Part shown: positions 1 to 14,001 of the stretch, in pieces
How positions within the stretch are numbered: position 1 is the stretch's first letter
Layout: each line of letters starts with the position of its first letter
Source: Escherichia coli
GTDB taxonomy: Bacteria > Pseudomonadota > Gammaproteobacteria > Enterobacterales > Enterobacteriaceae
DNA length: 64,000 nucleotides
Strand: one strand, 5' to 3'
Assembly (NCBI RefSeq): GCF_050920415.1
Contig: NZ_CP169309.1
Translations under genes and position numbers: made by a program
Notes under the pieces: model-generated
Seen by the model: only the letters and a program-made list of their open reading frames with translations
Told to the model about the DNA's origin: nothing
Databases searched by the model: none

Positions 1-594
1 TACCGTTGAGTATTTTTTAATAAATGACTCTGCCAGCGGAATAATATCGTTCAGGCGTTCACGCAGTGGCGGCATGGTAATAGGGATAACCGCCAGACGA
101 TAATAGAGATCTTCACGAAAACGTCCGGCGGCAACTTCCTGCTCCAGGTTTTTATTGGTGCAGGCAATCAGGCGAAAATTGAGTTTGATTTGTCGGTTGC
201 TGCCTAATCGCTCAACCTGTTGTTCCTGCAACACGCATAATATTTTGGCCTGTAGCGCCAGCGGCATTTCACCAATTTCATCGAGTAATAAGGTGCCGTT
301 ATTTGCCAGTTCCATTTTTCCTGGCACGCTGGCAATTGCGCCGGTAAATGCACCTTTGTCGTAGCCAAATAACGTCGATTCCAGCATATTTTCCGGGATC
401 GCCGCGCAGTTCACGCCGATATAGGGCGCATTATCATTTTCACCAAAGGCTACGGTGTGAATATATTTCGCCACGCACTCTTTCCCCGCGCCGGTTTCGC
501 CCTGAATCAGGACCGGCACGTTAAAGGCGGCGACACGCTTTGCCAGAGTAAAAGCGTTTATGCTGGAGGCGGCAGATGCAATAAGTTCAGACAT
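1..594 (-). CDS. lafK: Sigma-54-dependent transcriptional activator, partial (runs off window start); begins directly at the AAA+ domain with no receiver domain
   Basis: Minus-strand ATG at 594-592, open to position 1. My translation begins MSELIASAASSINAFTLAKRVAAFNVPVLIQGETGAGKE and contains GAFTGA, both typical of the sigma-54 activator AAA+ domain. Upstream in-frame stop at 672-670 with no other start codon. Divergent from lfiM as in lateral flagellar loci. Confidence 0.6.
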   Translation of the reverse strand, partial: MSELIASAASSINAFTLAKRVAAFNVPVLIQGETGAGKECVAKYIHTVAFGENDNAPYIGVNCAAIPENMLESTLFGYDKGAFTGAIASVPGKMELANNGTLLLDEIGEMPLALQAKILCVLQEQQVERLGSNRQIKLNFRLIACTNKNLEQEVAAGRFREDLYYRLAVIPITMPPLRERLNDIIPLAESFIKKYSTV

Positions 595-720
595 AGGGTG
601 AACAATATAAGTAGCGACAATAATCAGGATGTTCTGAAGCGTATCACCGGCGGGATTAACAAGTTTGAATTAAACGATAATAAAAATATTATTTCATTTT
701 AAACAATGAGTTAGAGTCGT

Positions 721-812
721 ATGGCGGATAAGGTTTTTACGCCGCATCCGGCAATTGTGCACCGGTGCCTGATGCGACGCTGCGCGTCTTATCAGGCCTA
801 CAGGGCGTGCAA
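721..812. repeat. REP/BIME-type extragenic palindromic repeats in the lafK-lfiM intergenic region
   Basis: gccgcatccggca and gcctgatgcgacgctgcgcgtcttatcaggcctaca resemble E. coli REP units. Confidence 0.5.
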
Positions 813-980
813 TGTTTTATGACGATGCCCGATATCTCACCCTTTAATAATTTAATTATTTTTTCACCCTATTAATAATTTGCCCCTTTCACGCCCCGTC
901 TATTTAATACCTCACCTTGTGTCACTGCCGGAATTGCGTGCACAAAAACGCCCATACCATTACAGCAGAGAAAGTAAGCC

Positions 981-1832
981 ATGCTGAAGTACAGTAAAAC
1001 GCCAGGCATCTTTAAATTAGAAGGTAATCGGCTCGGACGCCCCTACCATCGCCTGCCGACCCTGTTTACGGGGAATTTTGACGTGATTGATTCGCATCTC
1101 GGCAGCTACTTTCTCAAAAAGCATCGCAGCAATATCACTTTAAAAAAGATTGGCTGCGAAATGGATATTATTAATAAAAACGCCGAGTTGATGGTTTCCC
1201 AAGTCGGGCATCTGGCATTTGATATCGATCGCTCCTTATTGTTAATGCTGCTGGGCAATTTTTATGGTCTGGAGTCTTCTCTTGAAGAGGCAAAAGCCCA
1301 TAATGGCCTGCCGACCAAAACCGAAACACGATTAAAGAACCGACTCGCGCTGGATATCTGCACGCTGATATTTAATCTGCAAACCTCCGGTATTGCGCTG
1401 AAATTAAAGCTGGACAGCAGCACGGTAATTACCCACTGGGCGTATCAATTAACCTTTACCCTCGCGGGCGATGAAGAGAGCCGTTTTCGTATTTTGCTCG
1501 ACGATGCCCACACCGATTTTATTTTAAATCTGATCCGCCACAGTGAGCACAGTAAACCGCAGCAGGTGGCGAAATCCGTCAACAAGCCGGCACTGATTAA
1601 AGAGATCATCCGCTCTCTGCCGTTGACCCTGAACGTCAAAATCGCCGAGCTGTCGATGAATGTTGCCGATCTGGCGCAGATAAAAGCCGGAGATATTTTA
1701 CCCATCTCGCTGGGAGAAACGTTCCCGGTGGCGATTGGGCAATCTGAATTATTTAGCGCCCTGATTGTGGAAGACAAAGACAAACTGTTTTTGTCGGAGC
1801 TGGCGGGCAAAAATGAGAATAGCCATGAGTAA
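981..1832 (+). CDS. lfiM: Lateral flagellar motor switch protein, FliM-like
   Basis: 283-aa ORF, first gene of a fliMNPQR-flhBA-ordered operon; short FliM-like length. Confidence 0.6.
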   Translation: MLKYSKTPGIFKLEGNRLGRPYHRLPTLFTGNFDVIDSHLGSYFLKKHRSNITLKKIGCEMDIINKNAELMVSQVGHLAFDIDRSLLLMLLGNFYGLESSLEEAKAHNGLPTKTETRLKNRLALDICTLIFNLQTSGIALKLKLDSSTVITHWAYQLTFTLAGDEESRFRILLDDAHTDFILNLIRHSEHSKPQQVAKSVNKPALIKEIIRSLPLTLNVKIAELSMNVADLAQIKAGDILPISLGETFPVAIGQSELFSALIVEDKDKLFLSELAGKNENSHE

Positions 1833-2196
1833 GCAAGAAGATATTTTAACCGGGGATTTTGGCCTCACCGATGACGTTGCGCCTGTCACGAAACCCGCCG
1901 ACGCCGACACGCTGGTCACTCGCCTGGAAGACCGCTTTTCCGACTCGATGACGCTGCTGAAACGCATTCCGGTGACCTTAACGCTGGAAGTGTCGTCGGT
2001 GGAAATCATGTTAGCCGACCTGCTGAACATCGACGACGACACGGTGATTGAGCTGGATAAACTCGCCGGGGAGCCACTGGATATCAAAGTGAACAATATC
2101 CTGCTGGGCAAAGCGGAAGTGGTAGTGGTCAACGAGAAGTACGGCCTGCGCGTGCTGGAGTTTAACACCCGCGATATCAACGACCTGGCACCATGA
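1825..2196 (+). CDS. lfiN: Lateral flagellar motor switch protein, FliN-like
   Basis: ATG at 1825 (MSKQEDIL...), overlaps lfiM end; C-terminal ...VNNILLGKAEVVVVNEKYGLRVLEF resembles the FliN/SpoA domain. Confidence 0.7.
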   Translation: MSKQEDILTGDFGLTDDVAPVTKPADADTLVTRLEDRFSDSMTLLKRIPVTLTLEVSSVEIMLADLLNIDDDTVIELDKLAGEPLDIKVNNILLGKAEVVVVNEKYGLRVLEFNTRDINDLAP

Positions 2197-2945
2197 AACG
2201 CCGCGCTCAACTGACGCTGGGCCTGGCGCTGCTGGCGCTCGCGCCGCTGGCAATCGCCCAGGGCGGTGATATTGCGCTGCTTAACGTGGTCACTCATGGC
2301 AACACTCAGGAATACAGCGTCAAAATCCAGGTTCTGATTCTGATGACCCTCGTCGGTTTGTTGCCGACGATGGTGCTGATGATGACCTGCTTTACGCGCT
2401 TTATTATCGTGCTTTCACTACTGCGCCAGGCGCTGGGGCTGCAACAAACGCCGCCAAACCGCATTCTGATTGGCATTGCGCTCTCCCTCACCCTGCTGGT
2501 GATGCGCCCTGTCTGGCTGAATATTTACGACCACGCGGTGGTGCCGTTCGAAAACGATCAGATTACCCTGACCGATGCGCTAAGCACCGCCGCGACGCCG
2601 CTGAAACGCTTTATGCTGGCGCAGACCGACAAAAAAGCGATGGCGCAAATCATGACCATCGGTGGCGCGAAGGGCAATGCCGCCGACCAGGATCTCTCCA
2701 TCGTGGTGCCCGCCTATGTGCTGAGCGAGCTGAAAACCGCTTTCCAGATTGGCTTTATGATTTACATCCCGTTTCTGGTTATCGACCTGATTGTCGCCAG
2801 CGTATTGATGGCGATGGGGATGATGATGCTGTCGCCGCTGATCGTTTCGCTGCCGTTTAAACTGATGCTGTTTGTGCTGATCGACGGCTGGTCGCTGACC
2901 ATCGGCACGCTCACCACCAGCATTCGCGGGCTGGGGCTGGGCTGA
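2193..2945 (+). CDS. lfiP: Flagellar export apparatus protein, FliP-like
   Basis: 250 aa, signal peptide and multi-TM FliP-like sequence; start overlaps lfiN stop. Confidence 0.8.
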   Translation: MKRRAQLTLGLALLALAPLAIAQGGDIALLNVVTHGNTQEYSVKIQVLILMTLVGLLPTMVLMMTCFTRFIIVLSLLRQALGLQQTPPNRILIGIALSLTLLVMRPVWLNIYDHAVVPFENDQITLTDALSTAATPLKRFMLAQTDKKAMAQIMTIGGAKGNAADQDLSIVVPAYVLSELKTAFQIGFMIYIPFLVIDLIVASVLMAMGMMMLSPLIVSLPFKLMLFVLIDGWSLTIGTLTTSIRGLGLG

Positions 2946-2947
2946 TT

Positions 2948-3220
2948 ATGTTGACCGTAGACGTAGCCGCCGACATTGTCGCCAGCGGCATTAAAGTAGT
3001 GATTTTGCTGGTTTCGGTACTGGTGGTGCCAAGCCTGCTCGTTGGCCTGCTGGTGAGCGTGTTCCAGGCAGTGACGCAGATTAATGAGCAGACACTGAGC
3101 TTTTTACCGAGGCTGATTGTCACGCTGGTGGTGCTGGGGGTGTGCGGTAAATGGATGATTATCCAGTTGCATGATCTCTGCATTCATCTGTTTACCCAGG
3201 CCGCGTTGCTGGTGCATTAA
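2948..3220 (+). CDS. lfiQ: Flagellar export apparatus protein, FliQ-like
   Basis: 90-aa two-TM protein immediately after fliP-like gene. Confidence 0.8.
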   Translation: MLTVDVAADIVASGIKVVILLVSVLVVPSLLVGLLVSVFQAVTQINEQTLSFLPRLIVTLVVLGVCGKWMIIQLHDLCIHLFTQAALLVH

Positions 3221-3221
3221 G

Positions 3222-4004
3222 ATGCGCACAAGCGACGTTACGCAACTGATGGATCTGGCGCTGGGGCTGTGGTTTCCCTTCGTGCGCATTATGGCGTTTC
3301 TGCGCTATGTGCCGGTGCTGGATAACAGCGCCCTGACCGTGCGCGTGCGGATTATTTTGTCGCTGGCGCTGGCAATCATCATCACGCCGTTGATCCCCCA
3401 TCCCATTCCCCACGACCTGCTTTCGCTCAATAGCCTGATCCTGACGGTGGAGCAAATTTTATGGGGCATGTTATTCGGGCTGATTTTTCAGTTCCTGTTT
3501 CTGGCGCTACAGCTGGCCGGGCAAATTCTCTCGTTCAATATGGGGATGAGCATGGCGGTGATGAACGACCCGAGCAGCGGCGCATCGACCACCGTACTGG
3601 CGGAGCTAATCAACGTTTACGCGATCCTGCTGTTTTTTGCCATGGACGGGCATCTGCTGCTGGTGAGCGTGTTGTACAAGGGCTTCACCTACTGGCCGAT
3701 TGGCAACGCCCTGCATCCGCAAACCCTGCGCACCATCGCGCTGGCCTTTAGCTGGGTGCTGGCGTCGGCATCGCTGCTTGCGCTGCCGACCACTTTTATC
3801 ATGCTGATTGTGCAGGGCTGCTTTGGCCTGCTCAACCGCATTGCGCCGCCGCTGAATCTCTTTTCACTTGGCTTTCCCATCAACATGCTGGCAGGGCTGG
3901 TCTGTTTTGCCACCCTGCTCTACAACCTGCCGGATCACTATCTGCATCTGGCGAATTTTGTGTTGCAGCAGCTCGACGCGCTGAAAGGTCACTATGGCGG
4001 ATAG
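3222..4004 (+). CDS. lfiR: Flagellar export apparatus protein, FliR-like
   Basis: ATG at 3222 (MRTSDVTQL...), polytopic membrane protein of about 260 aa in FliR position. Confidence 0.75.
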   Translation: MRTSDVTQLMDLALGLWFPFVRIMAFLRYVPVLDNSALTVRVRIILSLALAIIITPLIPHPIPHDLLSLNSLILTVEQILWGMLFGLIFQFLFLALQLAGQILSFNMGMSMAVMNDPSSGASTTVLAELINVYAILLFFAMDGHLLLVSVLYKGFTYWPIGNALHPQTLRTIALAFSWVLASASLLALPTTFIMLIVQGCFGLLNRIAPPLNLFSLGFPINMLAGLVCFATLLYNLPDHYLHLANFVLQQLDALKGHYGG

Positions 4005-5133
4005 CAGCAGCGAAGAAAAAACAGAGAAACCTTCGGCGCAAAAGCTGCGTAAAGCGCGTGAAGAGGGACAACTGCCGCGCTCGAAGGATATGGGGCTGGC
4101 GGCGAGCCTGTTTGCGGCGTTTGTGGTGATCTCCAGCAGCTTCCCGTGGTATGCCGATTTTGTACGCGAGAGTTTTATCAGCGTGCATCAGTACGCGCAG
4201 GAGATTAATAACCCGGACGTTATCGGCCAGTTTCTGCGCCATCACCTGTTAATTCTCGGCAAGTTTATTCTCACCTTGCTGCCGATGCCCGCCGCCGCAC
4301 TGCTCTCCTCACTGGTGCCTGGCGGCTGGCTGTTCTTGCCGAAAAAAATCCTCCCGGATTTCAGCAAAATCAGTCCGTTAAAAGGCATTGGACGGCTGTT
4401 CTCCAGTGAACATCTTGCGGAAACAGGCAAGATGACGGCGAAGTCGGTGGTGGTGCTGGTGATGCTGTGGATTAGCCTGCGCAATAACTTTGCCGCCTTT
4501 CTCGGCCTGCAGGCGCTGCCGTTCAAACTGGCGATGAATGAGGGTTTGTCGCTCTACGCCAGCGTGATGCGCAACTTTGTCATCCTGTTTATTTTCTTCG
4601 CGCTTATCGACGTGCCGCTGGCGAAAGCCCTGTTCACCAAAGGGCTGAAGATGACTAAGCAGGAGCTGAAAGAAGAGTACAAAAATCAGGAGGGCAAGCC
4701 GGAAGTGAAAGCGCGTGTGCGGCGGCTGCAACGGCAGCTGGCGATGGGGCAAATCCGCAAAGTGGTGCCGAAAGCCAACGTGGTGATCACCAACCCGACC
4801 CACTACGCCGTGGCGTTGCAGTATGACCAGTCGCGCGCCGCCGCGCCGTTTGTAGTGGCAAAAGGTACCGATGAAATCGCCCTCTATATTCGTCAGGTCG
4901 CCACTGAAAATCAGGTGGAAGTGGTCGAGTTCCCGCGGCTGGCGCGCTCGGTTTACTACACCACCCAGGTGAACCAACAAATTCCGTTTCAGCTTTACCG
5001 GGCCATCGCCCACGTTCTGACCTACGTCCTGCAAATGAAACACTGGCGCGAGGGCGCACAGCCGCGCCCGGCCCTGAACAGACATATTTCCATTCCCAAA
5101 GAGGTGCTTAAACTGGATGGCGAAAACAACTAA
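3994..5133 (+). CDS. lfhB: Flagellar export switch protein, FlhB-like
   Basis: 379 aa, N-terminal TM region and FlhB-like C-terminal domain (...NPTHYAVAL...). Confidence 0.85.
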   Translation: MADSSSEEKTEKPSAQKLRKAREEGQLPRSKDMGLAASLFAAFVVISSSFPWYADFVRESFISVHQYAQEINNPDVIGQFLRHHLLILGKFILTLLPMPAAALLSSLVPGGWLFLPKKILPDFSKISPLKGIGRLFSSEHLAETGKMTAKSVVVLVMLWISLRNNFAAFLGLQALPFKLAMNEGLSLYASVMRNFVILFIFFALIDVPLAKALFTKGLKMTKQELKEEYKNQEGKPEVKARVRRLQRQLAMGQIRKVVPKANVVITNPTHYAVALQYDQSRAAAPFVVAKGTDEIALYIRQVATENQVEVVEFPRLARSVYYTTQVNQQIPFQLYRAIAHVLTYVLQMKHWREGAQPRPALNRHISIPKEVLKLDGENN

Positions 5134-7210
5134 ATCGTTCCTCGCGCTGCTGCGCGGCGGTAATCTCGGCGTACCGCTGGTGATCCTGTGTATTCTGGCG
5201 ATGGTTATTCTGCCGCTGCCACCTGCGCTGCTGGATATTCTGTTCACCTTCAACATTGTGCTGGCGGTGATGGTGCTGCTGGTGGCGGTGTCGGCGAAAC
5301 GACCGCTGGAATTCAGCCTGTTCCCGACCATTTTGCTGATCACCACCTTAATGCGCCTGACGCTCAACGTTGCTTCTACGCGCGTGGTGCTGCTGCACGG
5401 GCATCTCGGCGCGGGCGCGGCGGGTAAGGTGATTGAGTCGTTTGGTCAGGTGGTGATTGGCGGCAACTTTGTCGTCGGTTTCGTGGTGTTTATCATCCTG
5501 ATGATCATCAACTTTATCGTCGTCACCAAAGGGGCCGAGCGTATTTCCGAGGTTTCTGCCCGCTTTACCCTGGACGCGATGCCCGGCAAACAGATGGCGA
5601 TTGACGCCGATCTTAACGCCGGGTTGATCAACCAGGCGCAGGCGCAGACCCGCCGCAAAGATGTTGCCAGCGAGGCCGATTTCTACGGCGCAATGGACGG
5701 GGCATCGAAATTTGTGCGCGGGGATGCCATCGCCGGGATGATGATTCTGGCGATCAACCTGATTGGCGGCGTTTGTATCGGGATCTTCAAATACAACCTG
5801 AGCGCCAATGCCGCCTTCCAGCAGTATGTCCTGATGACCATTGGTGACGGGCTGGTAGCGCAGATCCCTTCCCTGCTGCTCTCTACCGCGGCAGCGATTA
5901 TCGTCACCCGCGTCAGCGACAACGGCGATATCGCCCATGATGTGCGCCACCAGCTGCTGGCAAGCCCGTCGGTGCTCTACACCGCCACCGGGATTATGTT
6001 CGTGCTGGCGGTGGTGCCGGGAATGCCGCACTTCCCGTTCCTGATGTTCAGCGCCCTGCTTGGTTTTACCGGCTGGCGAATGAGCAAACGCCCGCAGGCG
6101 GCGGAGGCGGAAGAGAAAAGCCTCGAAACGCTGACCCGCACCATCACCGAAACCAGCGAGCAACAGGTCAGTTGGGAAACCATTCCGCTGATCGAGCCCA
6201 TTAGTTTAAGCCTCGGTTACAAGCTGGTGGCGCTGGTGGACAAAGCGCAGGGTAATCCGCTCACCCAGCGGATTCGCGGCGTGCGGCAGGTGATTTCCGA
6301 CGGCAACGGCGTGCTGCTGCCGGAGATCCGCATTCGGGAAAATTTCCGCCTCAAGCCCAGCCAGTACGCCATTTTCATCAACGGCATTAAGGCTGATGAA
6401 GCGGATATTCCGGCGGATAAGCTGATGGCTCTGCCCTCCAGCGAAACCTACGGCGAGATTGACGGCGTGCTGGGGAACGACCCGGCGTATGGGATGCCGG
6501 TGACCTGGATTCAGCCCGCGCAGAAGGCGAAGGCGCTGAATATGGGGTATCAGGTGATCGACAGCGCCAGCGTAATTGCCACACATGTGAATAAGATTGT
6601 GCGCAGCTATATTCCTGATTTGTTTAACTATGACGATATTACTCAGCTGCATAACCGTTTGTCGTCGATGGCACCGCGCCTGGCGGAGGATTTGAGTGCG
6701 GCGCTGAATTACAGCCAGTTGCTGAAAGTGTACCGGGCACTGCTGACCGAAGGCGTTTCCCTGCGCGATATCGTCACCATCGCCACCGTGCTGGTCGCCA
6801 GTAGTACCGTCACCAAAGATCATATTCTGCTGGCGGCCGATGTGCGCCTGGCACTGCGGCGCAGCATTACCCATCCGTTCGTTCGCAAGCAGGAGCTGAC
6901 GGTGTATACGCTGAATAATGAGCTGGAAAACCTGCTGACCAACGTGGTGAATCAGGCGCAACAGGCTGGCAAAGTGATGCTCGATAGCGTGCCGGTGGAC
7001 CCGAATATGCTCAACCAGTTCCAGAACACGATGCCGCAGGTGAAGGAGCAGATGAAAGCCGCAGGTAAAGACCCGGTGCTGCTGGTGCCGCCGCAGCTGC
7101 GCCCATTGCTGGCGCGTTATGCGAAGTTGTTTGCGCCGGGGTTGCATGTGCTGTCGTATAACGAAGTGCCGGACGAGCTGGAGTTGAAGATTATGGGGGC
7201 GTTGAGTTGA
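5117..7210 (+). CDS. lfhA: Flagellar export gate protein, FlhA-like, full length
   Basis: 697 aa with FlhA-like TM region and cytoplasmic domain; uninterrupted ORF. Confidence 0.85.
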   Translation: MAKTTKSFLALLRGGNLGVPLVILCILAMVILPLPPALLDILFTFNIVLAVMVLLVAVSAKRPLEFSLFPTILLITTLMRLTLNVASTRVVLLHGHLGAGAAGKVIESFGQVVIGGNFVVGFVVFIILMIINFIVVTKGAERISEVSARFTLDAMPGKQMAIDADLNAGLINQAQAQTRRKDVASEADFYGAMDGASKFVRGDAIAGMMILAINLIGGVCIGIFKYNLSANAAFQQYVLMTIGDGLVAQIPSLLLSTAAAIIVTRVSDNGDIAHDVRHQLLASPSVLYTATGIMFVLAVVPGMPHFPFLMFSALLGFTGWRMSKRPQAAEAEEKSLETLTRTITETSEQQVSWETIPLIEPISLSLGYKLVALVDKAQGNPLTQRIRGVRQVISDGNGVLLPEIRIRENFRLKPSQYAIFINGIKADEADIPADKLMALPSSETYGEIDGVLGNDPAYGMPVTWIQPAQKAKALNMGYQVIDSASVIATHVNKIVRSYIPDLFNYDDITQLHNRLSSMAPRLAEDLSAALNYSQLLKVYRALLTEGVSLRDIVTIATVLVASSTVTKDHILLAADVRLALRRSITHPFVRKQELTVYTLNNELENLLTNVVNQAQQAGKVMLDSVPVDPNMLNQFQNTMPQVKEQMKAAGKDPVLLVPPQLRPLLARYAKLFAPGLHVLSYNEVPDELELKIMGALS

Positions 7211-7293
7211 TTGAGGATTCTTTTCCATACTTTGCAGCACCTGACACCATTAATTGACGTCACACTGCAAAGAGACTACGATGACACCATACA

Positions 7294-7593
7294 ATGACGT
7301 CATGGATTGATAGTATGATTAAGGTCAGCGCGCTAGGCTCTCGTCATAGAAAAACATTCGACGATGTAATGACGGAGCCGCCAAAATCTGGAATTAAATG
7401 GGATGATGTTGTTGCTCTCATTAAAGCGGTGGGTGGATCAATAAAAAATAACAACGGCTCCAGACGAAAATTTCAGATTGGAACGACCAAATTCAGCACA
7501 CATGAGCCGCATCCAAAGAATGTGATGGATAAAGGCGCAGTAGCAGGTCTTAAGGAGTGGTTTGTTAACTGTGTAGGGGTAGATTATGAATAA
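7294..7593 (+). CDS. HicA-like toxin (putative mRNA interferase) with N-terminal extension; alternative start ATG 7315
   Basis: ...GGSIKNNNGSRRKFQIGTTKFSTHEPHPKNVMDKGAVAGLKEW resembles the HicA/YcfA fold pattern; overlaps the downstream antitoxin-like gene by 8 bp. Confidence 0.5.
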   Translation: MTSWIDSMIKVSALGSRHRKTFDDVMTEPPKSGIKWDDVVALIKAVGGSIKNNNGSRRKFQIGTTKFSTHEPHPKNVMDKGAVAGLKEWFVNCVGVDYE

Positions 7594-7942
7594 AGCATCG
7601 AACATTATCACAATTAAAGGTCAACCAGCCGCAGTGACATTTGAAGCCGATATCAACGCATTTCGCGGCAAGTTCCTCAATGTAAACGGTTATTGTGACT
7701 TTGTAGCCACAAGTATTGAGGCATTATATCGTGAAGGCGAAAGCGCTCTGGATGAGTGGATGGCGGATTGTGAAGAGGACGGTATTGCCCCTTTTCGTGA
7801 AGAAGAAGAGCAAAAACGCCTGACGCTTCGTGTGCCGCATCACATCGATTCGCGGCTGACCATCGTCGCCAGACAACATTCCATTTCAAAAAACCAGCTC
7901 ATTATTGATGTCTTAGAACGTGAGTTTTCAGCCCAGATGTAA
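7586..7942 (+). CDS. HicB-like antitoxin with C-terminal ribbon-helix-helix DNA-binding domain
   Basis: 118 aa; C-terminal KRLTLRVPHHIDSRLTIVARQHSISKNQLIIDVLEREF is RHH-like; N-terminal part HicB-like; translationally coupled to the upstream toxin-like ORF. Confidence 0.55.
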   Translation: MNKASNIITIKGQPAAVTFEADINAFRGKFLNVNGYCDFVATSIEALYREGESALDEWMADCEEDGIAPFREEEEQKRLTLRVPHHIDSRLTIVARQHSISKNQLIIDVLEREFSAQM

Positions 7943-7974
7943 ACAGGTCGGATGCCGCGTGGCATCCGACCTGT
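7943..7974. terminator. Perfect hairpin between convergent hicB-like gene and yafL (bidirectional terminator or REP-like)
   Basis: acaggtcggatgcc-gcgt-ggcatccgacctgt inverted repeat. Confidence 0.5.
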
Positions 7975-7998
7975 TGCCAGTTCGTCAATATTACCCAT

Positions 7999-8757
7999 TT
8001 ACAAAATCGTCTCTTCCGTCAAAATCCGCCGCGCGCCTAAAAAATGATCCTGCCAGAAAGGTTCAGCTAACCGACTTACCCGAATGGTTTCCCCGGTGCG
8101 CGGCGACTCGATAAACTGACCGTCTCCCAGATACACGCCCATATGGTCGGCAATCTCGCGGCTGTGAATATGGAAAAACAGCAAATCTCCCCGGCGCAGG
8201 TCGTTATTTGCCACAATGGTTGCCCGACGGTAGTGATACATCTCATTGGCCGTGCGCGGGAGTTTCGCCTCGAGGATCTTGTTGTAGGCATAAAAAACCA
8301 ACCCGCTACAGTCGAAGCCTTGATCGGGTCGCGTGCCACCCCAGACGTATGGCTTGCCAAGCTGCTGCTCCAGACGGTGAATCGCCACTTCGGTGATATT
8401 ATGCAGGTGGTTACTGCTGAGGAAATGATTGTTTTCCGCCAGCGCCTGCCAGCGTCTGTCACTCGCCTTGAGCGGCGCAGGAAACCATTCTGGATGCTGT
8501 TTTATCTGTTCGCGGTTGTGTTGCCGCAGTGCCCTTCTGCTTTCGGCATTGCCTTCCACAATATAGCTGGCCTGCTTTTTCAGATGAATTTGGTACTGTT
8601 TTAATAAACGCGCACGGTTTTGCATCCGCTGGCGGGCGGCGTAGCTGAAAGAGATATGTGATGTGGTGGCGCTGGCGAGTAAAGGGAGCAAAACGCATAA
8701 CGAAAACACGCCTGGATGCAGAAATCTGCCGAGCAAGAACGAAGACATGAAGGACAT
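7999..8757 (-). CDS. yafL: NlpC/P60-family peptidoglycan endopeptidase lipoprotein
   Basis: Signal peptide, ...GFDCSGLVFYAY... catalytic Cys motif and ...HMGVYLGDGQFIESP... His motif; position matches K-12 yafL. Confidence 0.85.
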   Translation of the reverse strand: MSFMSSFLLGRFLHPGVFSLCVLLPLLASATTSHISFSYAARQRMQNRARLLKQYQIHLKKQASYIVEGNAESRRALRQHNREQIKQHPEWFPAPLKASDRRWQALAENNHFLSSNHLHNITEVAIHRLEQQLGKPYVWGGTRPDQGFDCSGLVFYAYNKILEAKLPRTANEMYHYRRATIVANNDLRRGDLLFFHIHSREIADHMGVYLGDGQFIESPRTGETIRVSRLAEPFWQDHFLGARRILTEETIL

Positions 8758-9048
8758 AAACCGGCTGAATGAAGGTGAGAATTTTAAAAGACCGGAGGAG
8801 TAAACGGGATTATTAATTGCTTATTTGCATATTACTATTGAGGTTTCATAATCTTAGGAAATAAATGATACATGCGCTTTTCGGACTAATGAAAACTGCC
8901 CTTGTGCTAAATTTGTAAACCCTGCGCCGACAGGCTTGCGTAAAACTCTTTTGGTGATAATGTGAGCCTTCCAAATCCAGACTATTCCGATTTGGGATCC
9001 ATTTTGCCGTCCTGGCGTGTGTAACCGTTTTATCAAGGAATAAGCAGT

Positions 9049-9789
9049 ATGCGTAAAATCGCATTAATTCTTGCGATGTTGTTGATCCCGTGCGTTTCGT
9101 TTGCCGGTTTGCTGGGCAGCAGTAGCTCGACCACGCCAGTGAGCAAAGAGTATAAGCAGCAGTTGATGGGATCCCCTGTCTACATCCAGATCTTCAAGGA
9201 AGAACGTACGCTCGATCTCTACGTCAAAATGGGCGAGCAATATCAGCTGCTCGACAGTTATAAAATCTGTAAATATTCCGGCGGCTTAGGGCCAAAACAG
9301 CGTCAGGGCGATTTCAAAAGCCCGGAAGGGTTTTATAGCGTCCAGCGTAATCAGTTAAAACCAGACAGCCGTTACTACAAAGCGATTAATATTGGTTTCC
9401 CCAATGCCTATGACCGTGCGCATGGTTATGAAGGGAAATACCTGATGATCCACGGCGATTGTGTTTCCATCGGCTGCTACGCAATGACCAATCAAGGTAT
9501 TGATGAGATCTTCCAGTTCGTTACTGGTGCGCTGGTGTTTGGTCAGCCGAGCGTGCAAGTGAGTATTTACCCGTTCCGCATGACCGACGCCAATATGAAG
9601 CGCCATAAATATTCCAACTTTAAGGACTTCTGGGAGCAACTGAAGCCGGGTTACGACTACTTTGAACAGACCCGTAAGCCACCGACCGTTTCTGTGGTCA
9701 ATGGCCGTTACGTGGTCAGCAAGCCGTTAAGCCACGAAGTTGTGCAGCCACAACTGGCATCAAACTACACGCTCCCCGAGGCAAAATAA
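9049..9789 (+). CDS. yafK: L,D-transpeptidase-fold periplasmic protein YafK
   Basis: 246 aa, signal peptide, ...[14 protein letters not shown]... YkuD-type motif. Confidence 0.85.
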
Positions 9790-10527
9790 GCGCCATTCGC
9801 CTGGCATAATCTTTTGCCAGGTTTCATTGCCCGTCAGCGGCTGTGTCGCAATCACCGTGACCACATCATTCGGTGTGGTCTGCGAGCTGAAGTCGATTTC
9901 CACATCCTGATCCAGCAACGTTGCCACGCCAAACGGCGCGCGGCGGGTGATCCAGTGTAAATTAGTCGAGCAATACGCCATTACATAGCGCCCGTCAGAA
10001 AGCAGCATGTTGAAAACGCCCTTCTGCCGCAGTTCATCCGCCAGTGAGGCGATATATTTAAACACTGCCGCCATGTTGCCCGGTGTGCGTGGGTAACGCT
10101 GCGTTAATTTATGCAGCAGCCAGCAAAAGGCTTTTTCGCTGTCGGTTTCACCTACCGGGCGGAAGTTGCCGGTTTCCAGTGACTTGTACCCCGTCAGTTG
10201 CCCGTTATGGGCATAAGTCCAGTTGCGTCCCCATAACTCGCGGGTAAACGGATGAGTATTTTCCAGTGCCACCTCGCCCCGATTCGCCTGGCGAATATGA
10301 GCAATTACCGAGCAGGATTTGATTGGATAGTCCTGGACCAGTTTAGCGATAGGGGAATTAAAGCTGGGTTGCGGATCTTTAAATGTGCGACAGCCTTTAC
10401 CTTCGTAAAAGGTAATGCCCCAGCCATCTTTATGTGGCCCGGTTCCACCACCACGCTGCACCAGACCGGTGAAACTAAAGCAGATATCGGTAGGGACGTT
10501 AGCGCTCATCCCGAGCAATTCGCACAT
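9760..10527 (-). CDS. yafJ: Class II glutamine amidotransferase YafJ
   Basis: Starts [12 protein letters not shown] (N-terminal Cys nucleophile); convergent overlap with yafK. Confidence 0.85.
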
Positions 10528-10589
10528 GGGTAACCTCCACAACAGCGGGAGCGCATGGCCCCCGGCGAAGATTGATTTAAGAATTTTCA

Positions 10590-10730
10590 GGTCGGATGCA
10601 GCGTGAACGCATTATTCGGCCTACGGTTCGGGTACAGATTTGTAGGCATGATAAGACGCGTCAGCGTCGCATCAGGCATCAGCGCACAAGTGCCGGATGC
10701 GGCGTAAACGCCTTATCCAGCCTACGCCAG
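10590..10730. repeat. BIME/REP cluster between yafJ and gmhA
   Basis: Multiple REP-like palindromes (gccggatgcggcgtaaacgccttatccagcctacg and inverted copies). Confidence 0.55.
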
Positions 10731-10732
10731 AC

Positions 10733-11311
10733 TTACTTAACCATCTCTTTTTCAATTAACTGGATCAGGATATGGATCACTTTAATGTGGATCTCCTGAA
10801 TGCGGTCGGCATAACCAAAGTGCGGAACGCGAATTTCGATATCCGCCGCGCCAGCCATTTTGCCGCCGTCTTTACCCGTCAGGGTGATCACTTTCATCCC
10901 CTTCTCACGCGCCGCCGAGATCGCTTTGATCACGTTTGCAGAGTTACCAGAGGTGGAGATCCCCAGCAATACATCGCCTTCGCGACCTACCGCTTCAACG
11001 TAGCGGGAGAAAATATCATTGAAACCGAAATCATTACCGACGCAGGAAATATGACTAACGTCAGAAATAGCAATCGCCGGATAGCCCGGACGGTTTTCAC
11101 GGTAGCGCCCCGTCAACTCTTCGGCAAAGTGCATGGCGTCGCAATGGGAACCGCCATTACCGCAGGAAAGCACCTTACCACCGGCTTTAAAGCTATCTGC
11201 TAACAGGACCGCCGCGCGCTGAATGGCGTGAATATTGGCGTCATCTTTTAAAAAGTTAGCCAGCGTTTCCGCCGCTTCGTTCAGTTCGTTACGAATAAGA
11301 TCCTGGTACAT
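10733..11311 (-). CDS. gmhA: D-sedoheptulose-7-phosphate isomerase
   Basis: [17 protein letters not shown]... 192 aa SIS-domain protein. Confidence 0.95.
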
Positions 11312-11550
11312 GAGGATATCCTTCAGCATAAATGTAATAGACAAAATGCAGTGTACCGGATACCGCCAAAAGCGAGAAGTACGGGCAGGTGCGATGACCA
11401 GGACTTTTTGACCTGAAGTGCGGATAAAAACAGCAACAATGTGAGCTTTGTTGTAATTATATTGTAAACACATTGCTAAATGTTTTTACATCCACTACAA
11501 CCATATCATCACAAGTGGTCAGACCTCCTACAAGTAAGGGGCTTTTCGTT

Positions 11551-13995
11551 ATGATGATTTTGAGTATTCTCGCTACGGTTGTCCTGCTCGGCGCGTTGTT
11601 CTATCACCGCGTGAGCTTATTTATCAGCAGTCTGATTTTGCTCGCCTGGACAGCCGCCCTCGGCGTCGCTGGTCTGTGGTCGGCGTGGGTACTGGTGCCT
11701 CTGGCCATTATCCTCGTACCGTTTAACTTTGCGCCTATGCGTAAGTCGATGATTTCTGCGCCGGTATTTCGTGGATTCCGTAAGGTGATGCCACCGATGT
11801 CACGCACTGAAAAAGAAGCGATTGATGCAGGCACTACCTGGTGGGAAGGCGACTTGTTCCAGGGTAAGCCGGACTGGAAAAAGCTGCATAACTATCCGCA
11901 GCCGCGCCTGACCGCAGAAGAGCAAGCGTTTCTCGACGGCCCGGTAGAAGAAGCCTGCCGGATGGCGAATGATTTCCAGATTACTCATGAGCTGGCTGAT
12001 TTGCCGCCGGAGCTGTGGGCGTACCTTAAAGAGCATCGCTTCTTCGCGATGATCATCAAAAAAGAGTACGGCGGGCTGGAGTTCTCGGCTTATGCCCAAT
12101 CTCGTGTGCTGCAAAAACTCTCCGGCGTGAGCGGGATCCTGGCGATTACCGTCGGCGTGCCGAACTCATTAGGCCCGGGCGAGCTGCTGCAACATTACGG
12201 CACTGACGAGCAGAAAAATCACTATCTGCCGCGTCTGGCGCGTGGTCAGGAGCTCCCTTGCTTTGCACTGACCAGCCCGGAAGCGGGTTCCGATGCGGGC
12301 GCGATTCCGGATACCGGGATTGTCTGCATGGGTGAATGGCAGGGCCAGCAGGTGCTGGGGATGCGACTGACCTGGAACAAACGCTACATTACGCTCGCGC
12401 CAATTGCGACCGTGCTTGGGCTGGCGTTTAAACTTTCCGACCCGGAAAAACTGCTGGGTGGCGCAGAAGATTTAGGCATTACCTGTGCACTTATCCCGAC
12501 CACCACGCCAGGCGTGGAAATTGGTCGTCGCCACTTCCCGCTGAACGTACCGTTCCAGAACGGACCGACGCGAGGTAAAGATGTCTTCGTACCGATCGAC
12601 TACATTATCGGCGGACCAAAAATGGCCGGGCAAGGCTGGCGGATGCTGGTGGAGTGTCTCTCCGTGGGCCGCGGCATCACCCTACCTTCCAACTCAACCG
12701 GCGGCGTGAAATCGGTAGCACTGGCAACGGGCGCGTATGCGCACATTCGCCGTCAGTTCAAAATCTCTATCGGTAAGATGGAAGGGATTGAAGAGCCGCT
12801 GGCGCGTATTGCCGGTAATGCCTACGTGATGGATGCTGCGGCATCGCTGATTACCTACGGCATTATGCTCGGTGAAAAACCTGCCGTGCTGTCGGCTATC
12901 GTTAAGTATCACTGTACCCACCGCGGGCAGCAGTCGATTATTGATGCGATGGATATCACCGGGGGCAAAGGCATTATGCTCGGGCAAAGCAACTTCCTGG
13001 CCCGTGCTTACCAGGGCGCACCGATTGCCATCACCGTTGAAGGGGCCAACATTCTGACCCGCAGCATGATGATCTTCGGTCAGGGAGCGATTCGTTGCCA
13101 TCCGTACGTGCTGGAAGAGATGGAAGCGGCGAAGAACAATGACGTTAACGCATTCGATAAACTGCTATTCAAACATATCGGCCACGTCTGCAGTAACAAA
13201 GTTCGCAGCTTCTGGCTGGGCCTGACGCGCGGTTTAACCAGCAGCACACCAACCGGCGATGCCACTAAACGTTATTATCAGCACCTGAACCGCCTGAGTG
13301 CCAACCTCGCCCTGCTTTCTGATGTGTCGATGGCGGTGTTGGGCGGCAGCCTGAAACGTCGCGAACGCATCTCGGCACGTCTGGGGGATATTTTAAGCCA
13401 GCTTTACCTCGCCTCTGCCGTTCTGAAGCGTTATGACGACGAAGGCCGTAATGAAGCCGATCTGCCGCTGGTGCACTGGGGCGTACAGGATGCGCTGTAT
13501 CAGGCTGAACAGGCGATGGATGATTTACTGCAAAACTTCCCGAACCGCGTGGTTGCCGGGCTGCTGAATGTGGTGATCTTCCCGACCGGACGCCATTATC
13601 TGGCACCGTCTGACAAGCTGGATCATAAGGTGGCGAAGATTTTACAAGTGCCTAACGCCACCCGTTCACGTATTGGTCGCGGTCAGTACCTGACGCCGAG
13701 CGAGCATAACCCGGTTGGTTTACTGGAAGAGGCGCTGGTGGATGTGATTGCCGCCGACCCAATTCATCAGCGGATCTGTAAAGATCTGGGTAAAAACCTG
13801 CCGTTTACCCGTCTGGATGAACTGGCGCATAACGCGCTGGCGAAGGGGCTGATTGATAAAGATGAAGCCGCTATTCTGGTGAAAGCTGAAGAGAGTCGTC
13901 TGCGCAGTATTAACGTTGATGACTTTGATCCGGAAGAGCTGGCGACGAAGCCGGTAAAGTTGCCGGAGAAAGTGCGGAAAGTTGAAGCCGCGTAA
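11551..13995 (+). CDS. fadE: Acyl-CoA dehydrogenase FadE
   Basis: ATG 11551 ([14 protein letters not shown]...); about 814 aa with N-terminal TM segment and ACAD domain. Confidence 0.95.
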
Positions 13996-14001
13996 TTGAA
14001 T

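Follow-up and report, generated by a model that had tools for sequence, protein, structure and literature searches.

The interval between yafL and yafK in the 64,000-bp stretch of E. coli DNA analysed here (the window) is very likely an ancestral site that was never occupied by the dinJ-yafQ toxin-antitoxin (TA) module. The dinJ-yafQ allele carried by K-12 would then be the derived form, generated by one replacement event, and the hicAB-like TA pair beyond yafL would be a separate matter. We put the probability of this reading at about 0.85; the direction of change and the single origin are argued by parsimony over the few outgroups sampled.

The window runs in reverse orientation to the K-12 chromosome, and its genes are ordered flhB-like, lfhA/flhA, hicA, hicB, yafL, the gap, yafK/dpaA and then yafJ, gmhA and fadE. 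The order in K-12 is dpaA-yafQ-dinJ-yafL-rayT-lfhA′, which bears out the original prediction in placing the K-12 module between yafK and yafL. The ORF listing gives yafL (minus strand) and yafK/dpaA (plus strand) as divergent neighbours only 291 bp apart with no annotated gene between them, and the claim that a short non-coding gap separates the two genes holds. In a genome 100% identical to the window over 7200-9900 (strain MFDS1022581), PGAP starts yafL at the second ATG, at window position 8748 (249 aa), and this ATG is also kept in the outgroup alignment. Position 8748 is probably the true yafL start and, because it is the start conserved in the outgroups, 300 bp is a better figure for the gap than 291 bp. 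The coordinates of the features are collected in Table 1.

Table 1. Features of the yafL-yafK region of the window, with strand and the evidence for each.
Feature	Coordinates	Strand	Evidence and remarks
hicA-family toxin gene	7294-7593	+	Longest ORF 99 aa; PGAP start 7315, "type II toxin-antitoxin system HicA family toxin"
hicB-family antitoxin gene	7586-7942	+	Pfam HicB PF05534, 40.5 bits against a gathering score of 21; PGAP
Perfect 14-bp inverted repeat, 4-nt loop	7943-7974		ACAGGTCGGATGCC-GCGT-GGCATCCGACCTGT, read from the sequence
yafL, NlpC/P60 (C40) peptidase	7999-8757	-	Pfam NLPC_P60, 114.7 bits; longest ORF 252 aa
Allele-specific empty-site segment	8677-8908		~232 bp; alignment breakpoints against K-12
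yafL-yafK intergenic gap, divergent regulatory region	8758-9048		291 bp; 300 bp from the conserved yafL start
Conserved dpaA/yafK upstream region	8909-9048	+	Common to both alleles and Citrobacter
yafK (= dpaA), YkuD-fold peptidoglycan meso-DAP protein amidase	9049-9789	+	Pfam YkuD; annotation; 246 aa

Only two ORFs of at least 40 aa occur within the gap, overlapping each other on the minus strand with 60 and 42 aa inside it. The corresponding region of Citrobacter carries 1-bp and 58-bp indels, and no convincing small ORF was found in the yafL-yafK gap. Scanning 7200-9300 against Rfam returned zero RNA families at an E value of 1 or better. In a promoter scan of 8600-9150, no more than two weak sigma-70-like sites appeared where 0.7 were expected, for which reason the naming of a promoter in this region was dropped; the three "terminator-like" hairpins returned by the scan all span the dpaA start codon.

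The whole 64 kb was searched by tblastn in six frames with K-12 DinJ and YafQ as queries. The best matches were a short fragment for DinJ (E = 0.38) and a 19-aa stretch for YafQ (E = 0.27), both outside the gap, so the predicted absence of the module stands for 8758-9048 and for the rest of the window. K-12 RayT, used in the same way against the 64 kb, likewise matched no more than a short fragment outside the gap (E = 0.049). The same searches recovered YafK and YafL where expected, the former identical to K-12 DpaA at all 246 residues (246/246) and the latter with 92.5% amino acid identity over residues 9-249. At the DNA level, the K-12 cassette shared only chance words of 12-21 nt with the window in a blastn search seeded with 7-nt words. 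In K-12, a LexA-box-like sequence, CTGTATATTTATTCAG, lies within the 209-bp dinJ-yafL spacer, 17 bp upstream of dinJ (position 6520 of the K-12 locus, L001). The pattern CTG-N10-CAG is absent from window positions 8600-9100 and CTGT-N8-ACAG from the whole window, which is thus without a YafQ toxin ORF, a DinJ antitoxin ORF and a LexA-box-like dinJ operator alike.

Alignment of the interval with K-12 located the two points at which homology is interrupted. It ends at 8676/8677, inside yafL and just upstream of the ASATTSH codons, and restarts at 8908/8909, which corresponds to 15 bp past the K-12 yafQ stop codon. The window segment enclosed by these breakpoints contains the first 24-27 yafL codons (the signal peptide) together with the yafL-proximal intergenic DNA. 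Its K-12 counterpart of ~838 bp (L001 5947-6784) contains 15 bp, yafQ, dinJ, the dinJ-yafL spacer and a different 24-codon yafL 5′ end. The K-12 allele is therefore a replacement, ~838 bp for ~232 bp including the first 24 codons of yafL. The module is missing from the interval as predicted, but the two alleles are not related by simple insertion or deletion. By local alignment, the K-12 spacer and yafL 5′ end share only short AT-rich words with the window and Citrobacter segments, and support for homology between the two yafL 5′ ends comes from the protein level only. No terminal direct or inverted repeats were found at the breakpoints of the K-12 cassette or of the window interval, which accordingly show no transposon-like signature.

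The outgroup scan took one genome per species with YafL as the query and covered 25 loci. Ten Citrobacter and Phytobacter loci are arranged as yafJ-yafK, ~340 bp and yafL, with lfhA ~45 bp further on, and none of the ten carries dinJ-yafQ, hicAB or rayT. In E. albertii, Escherichia sp. E1V33 and SCPM-O-B-8794 (a divergent species representative labelled "E. coli"), yafK is followed after ~300-390 bp by yafL-rayT, again without dinJ-yafQ. The window segment matches these three Escherichia loci at 182-190 of 230 positions (79-83%) with at most one gap, and is colinear with conserved blocks in eight Citrobacter loci, including an AT-rich block and the yafL start. The N-terminus of the window YafL agrees at 13-14 of 24 residues with the empty Escherichia loci and at 10-12 of 24 with Citrobacter. 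Colinearity with outgroups that have no dinJ-yafQ, together with the lack of any insert remnant or insert-type flanks, marks the segment as very probably an ancestral empty site and not a deletion scar. The same comparisons bear on the idea that dinJ-yafQ was deleted in place from a K-12-like ancestor, with the 291 bp as what was left over, a reading for which the window gap being shorter than that of K-12 might speak. Such a deletion should have left K-12 flanks with a hole between them, but the 232-bp segment is unrelated in DNA to the K-12 segment and homologous to the module-less outgroup intervals, and it holds zero remnant of dinJ or yafQ. The YafL N-termini differ as well, the first 24 residues of K-12 (L001 6713-6784) and the window (8677-8748) sharing only 5 of 24 identities (shuffle P = 0.53). 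In-place deletion is effectively refuted by the K-12 alignment, the outgroup homology and the N-terminus comparison.

In a survey of 5426 complete E. coli genomes, the locus was present in 5424. The dinJ-yafQ module was found in 3340 genomes (62%) and the window-type segment, queried as 8677-8906, in 2084 (38%), every match covering at least 80% of the query. The two counts sum to exactly the 5424 genomes with the locus, so the alleles are strictly alternative, and because all 2084 matches reach at least 80% coverage there is no hybrid joining dinJ-yafQ to a window-type yafL 5′ end. This absence of hybrids fits a single origin of the dinJ-yafQ allele. Sequence diversity is greater in the empty allele, as the spread of identities shows: 663 genomes lie at 90-95% identity to the window copy and 30 at 80-90% (693 below 95%), compared with three genomes below 95% for dinJ-yafQ. 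An uneven distribution of the module is already in the literature: Gonzalez-Alba et al. 2019 (PMC6896753) list yafQ-dinJ among the acquisitions of the EB1A lineage and of phylogroup F, and Singh et al. 2023 (PMC10790755) describe a high prevalence of YafQ in A, B1 and F. The phylogroup-restricted occurrence of dinJ-yafQ is thus a published, common variant. The original prediction of lineage-specific TA turnover is sound as far as lineage-specific presence and absence go, a point already made in those two papers; it fails on the direction of change, as the window very probably has the ancestral state.

Only ~10 of the 5426 genomes match the window at 99% identity or more over 7200-9900. Divergence from K-12 over 7999-14000 is also uneven, with identities of 91.7% for yafL, 98.5% for yafK and ~96% for yafJ, gmhA and fadE. 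Together these figures indicate a sparsely sampled lineage and a locus that is a mosaic of recombination, and the contrast between the yafK tract and yafJ, fadE and gmhA points to recombination or strong constraint beside the junction. Recombination of this kind could in principle have restored an empty allele by homologous exchange in a lineage whose ancestor carried dinJ-yafQ, a true loss without a scar. The fact that yafK is far closer to K-12 than its neighbours would suit such an exchange, as would the occurrence of hicAB, rayT, an intact or deleted Flag-2 cluster and both yafL-yafK alleles in all combinations, which speaks for shuffling by recombination, and the presence of dinJ-yafQ in phylogroup F against an FGB2 background (PMC6896753). 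Nothing, however, points specifically to a loss, which needs an extra step; published work confines dinJ-yafQ to EB1A and F, and the ~4% divergence of the window from K-12 fits a lineage outside EB1A. We consider this secondary loss unlikely, and retain the never-occupied site as the preferred reading.

Among the non-coli Escherichia sampled, only Escherichia sp. MOD1-EC7003 carries dinJ-yafQ, and it does so with the K-12-type yafL 5′ end, so the polymorphism is either old or has crossed lineage boundaries. When K-12 is compared with MOD1-EC7003, identity is higher for yafQ (99.3%) and dinJ (98.1%) than for yafJ and yafK on their flanks (95-96.5%), which is weakly consistent with transfer between lineages. 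The K-12-type YafL N-terminus agrees with those of Citrobacter and Kluyvera at 10-11 of 24 residues in ungapped comparison (P ~0.001 in composition-preserving shuffles), a likeness that suggests that the incoming DNA brought along a real yafL 5′ end, though a foreign one. The polymorphism may accordingly be an exchange of two old haplotypes in which yafL was rewired, the dinJ-yafQ haplotype having been imported by homologous recombination from a foreign enterobacterium with a yafK-yafQ-dinJ-yafL arrangement; this proposal is tentative, and we would give it somewhat less than an even chance. A search of plasmids for a vector of the K-12 cassette turned none up: the full-length matches were F-prime plasmids or mislabelled chromosomes, all with the chromosomal region in them, and the remaining matches were homologs with 60-80% identity in Sphingobium, Klebsiella, Enterobacter and others. 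In the dinJ-yafQ haplotype, yafL stands back-to-back with the LexA-box dinJ promoter, and window-type strains keep the ancestral yafL promoter region and signal peptide. If the exchange is real, the alleles could differ in how the YafL cell-wall peptidase, encoded beside the gene for the peptidoglycan-Lpp amidase DpaA, is regulated or exported.

The yafL-proximal part of the gap is the ancestral yafL upstream region and contains no LexA-box-like site. On the dpaA side, 8907-9048 is identical to K-12 at 140 of 142 positions, and the 140 bp upstream of dpaA are highly conserved in Citrobacter. Since these 140 bp are kept whatever the TA state, they very probably hold a promoter of dpaA's own and its 5′ UTR. 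This reading runs against Table 1 of PMC5120126, where the entry for dpaA is "no promoter, likely cotranscribed with dinJ-yafQ". A perfect CCAAATC-N11-GATTTGG hairpin is present at 8975-8999 within the dpaA upstream region. A structured RNA upstream of dpaA was considered and dropped, the predicted fold of 8907-9060 being no more stable than that of shuffled sequences (z = -0.22).

The original prediction also noted a different TA-like pair beyond yafL, and the Pfam results agree, since both domains exceed their gathering scores. For HicA_toxin (PF07927) the margin is small (29.1 bits against 27, E = 1.1e-6), and the profile match covers only residues 36-84 of the 92-99 aa ORF, which leaves an N-terminal extension outside the domain. 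The hicB start at 7586 precedes the hicA stop at 7593, giving an overlap of 8 nt. A HicA_toxin protein encoded ahead of an overlapping hicB is thus present at 7294-7942, and we assign the pair as HicA/HicB, a putative type II TA system. In its domains, toxin-first order and overlapping genes it resembles HicAB systems; its locus is unlike that of K-12 hicAB, which Table 1 of PMC5120126 places between yncJ and ydcR. The inverted repeat follows directly on the hicB stop codon, where hicB and yafL converge, and probably serves as a bidirectional terminator or REP-like hairpin.

The yafL-lfhA spacer in which the pair lies (window 7211-7998) is a second variable site. It is occupied in E. coli by hicAB (~1466 of 5426 genomes, in agreement with the 1468 that cover at least 80% of 7200-9900), by rayT (3575 genomes, accompanied by REP sequences in K-12 and ST131) or by neither (~380), and hicAB and rayT are largely alternative occupants. 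In Citrobacter the spacer is only ~45 bp. Neither Citrobacter nor any of the other Escherichia species sampled carries hicAB; their spacers are empty or contain rayT. A plasmid search for a vector of hicAB found full-length matches (96-98.5%) only in E. coli records of 0.4-4.9 Mb, that is, chromosome-sized or large secondary replicons, and further only ~67% identical homologs on Salmonella plasmids.

Because yafL is flanked by the sites of both TA pairs, at a distance of ~1 kb from each other, it could be supposed that hicAB had displaced dinJ-yafQ here, a cassette-for-cassette turnover such as the original prediction envisaged. The two modules, however, occupy different intergenic sites. Co-occurrence, counted with synthetic two-part queries, gave 1123 genomes with hicAB and dinJ-yafQ but only 343 with hicAB and the empty site, so that hicAB is found in 34% of dinJ-yafQ genomes and 16% of empty-site genomes, the opposite of mutual exclusion. 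All four combinations occur, namely rayT with dinJ-yafQ (K-12), rayT with the empty allele (ST131), hicAB with dinJ-yafQ (2020CK-00188) and hicAB with the empty site (ESDR8, which has a truncated flhA); the last, which is that of the window, is the rarest of the four at ~6% of genomes. With different sites and every combination represented, hicAB is not a replacement for dinJ-yafQ, and a functional swap is highly improbable. The two modules were gained independently at neighbouring sites, and recombination has reshuffled them.

Beyond this spacer, window positions 1-7210 hold the end of a Flag-2 (lateral flagella-like) cluster, with the flhB-like gene at 3994-5133, which is intact as far as a full-length lfhA/flhA at 5117-7210 (697 aa); K-12 keeps only lfhA and lafU pseudogene remnants of Flag-2. 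At the other end, beyond yafV, lies a large island (~15400-63100) with ISAs1 fragments, an ICE-protein gene and a group II intron reverse transcriptase gene (ltrA). It also contains several VgrG/PAAR/effector modules (Tle1-like and Tae4-like), broken by IS21 and IS2, and a complete T6SS core cluster whose end is at tRNA-Asp, beside dnaQ.

Returning to the never-occupied site, we propose the following course of events. In the ancestral gap, the yafL side would have consisted of the original upstream region and signal-peptide codons of that gene, and the other side of the conserved dpaA upstream region. One event would have exchanged ~232 bp for ~838 bp carrying dinJ-yafQ, its LexA-box promoter and another yafL 5′ end, and the resulting allele would then have spread to the A/B1/C/E lineages, phylogroup F and at least one other Escherichia lineage, while the lineage of the window kept the old allele. 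The HicAB pair would be a separate insertion between yafL and lfhA, at the site taken by rayT elsewhere, unrelated to the dinJ-yafQ state.

On this account K-12 has the derived state at yafL-yafK, and ~38% of complete E. coli genomes, ST131 and the present strain among them, are naturally without dinJ-yafQ. K-12-centred annotation calls for caution here, as a "missing" dinJ-yafQ would mean one that was never gained, and adjoining TA pairs should not be taken for swaps. As the dinJ-yafQ allele alters the yafL signal peptide and upstream region, it could also confound phenotypes credited to the TA module alone.

The window conforms to the published dinJ-yafQ polymorphism (PMC6896753, PMC10790755) as an example of the negative state outside EB1A and F, and the 62% and 38% frequencies fit that description. 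Whereas those studies score gene presence only, the empty site is here mapped to the base and found homologous to outgroup intervals, and the positive allele is seen to swap the yafL 5′ end as well. More generally, Ramisetty and Santhosh (2016, as cited in PMC5120126) described chromosomal type II TA modules as small islets in intergenic regions of the core genome, and PMC5120126 itself (Ramisetty and co-workers) presents chromosomal TA modules as inserts acquired horizontally between core genes and lists the yafL-dinJ-yafQ-yafK arrangement. dinJ-yafQ resembles such islets in lying between conserved core genes in some strains where others have a short intergenic region. Another example is presumably ccdO157 at folA-apaH, which we take to be a TA islet between core genes. 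The flanks of the dinJ-yafQ allele are free of terminal repeats and mobile-element signatures and, unlike a clean islet insertion, this allele also takes the place of 24 codons of the adjoining yafL and of the DNA upstream of that gene.
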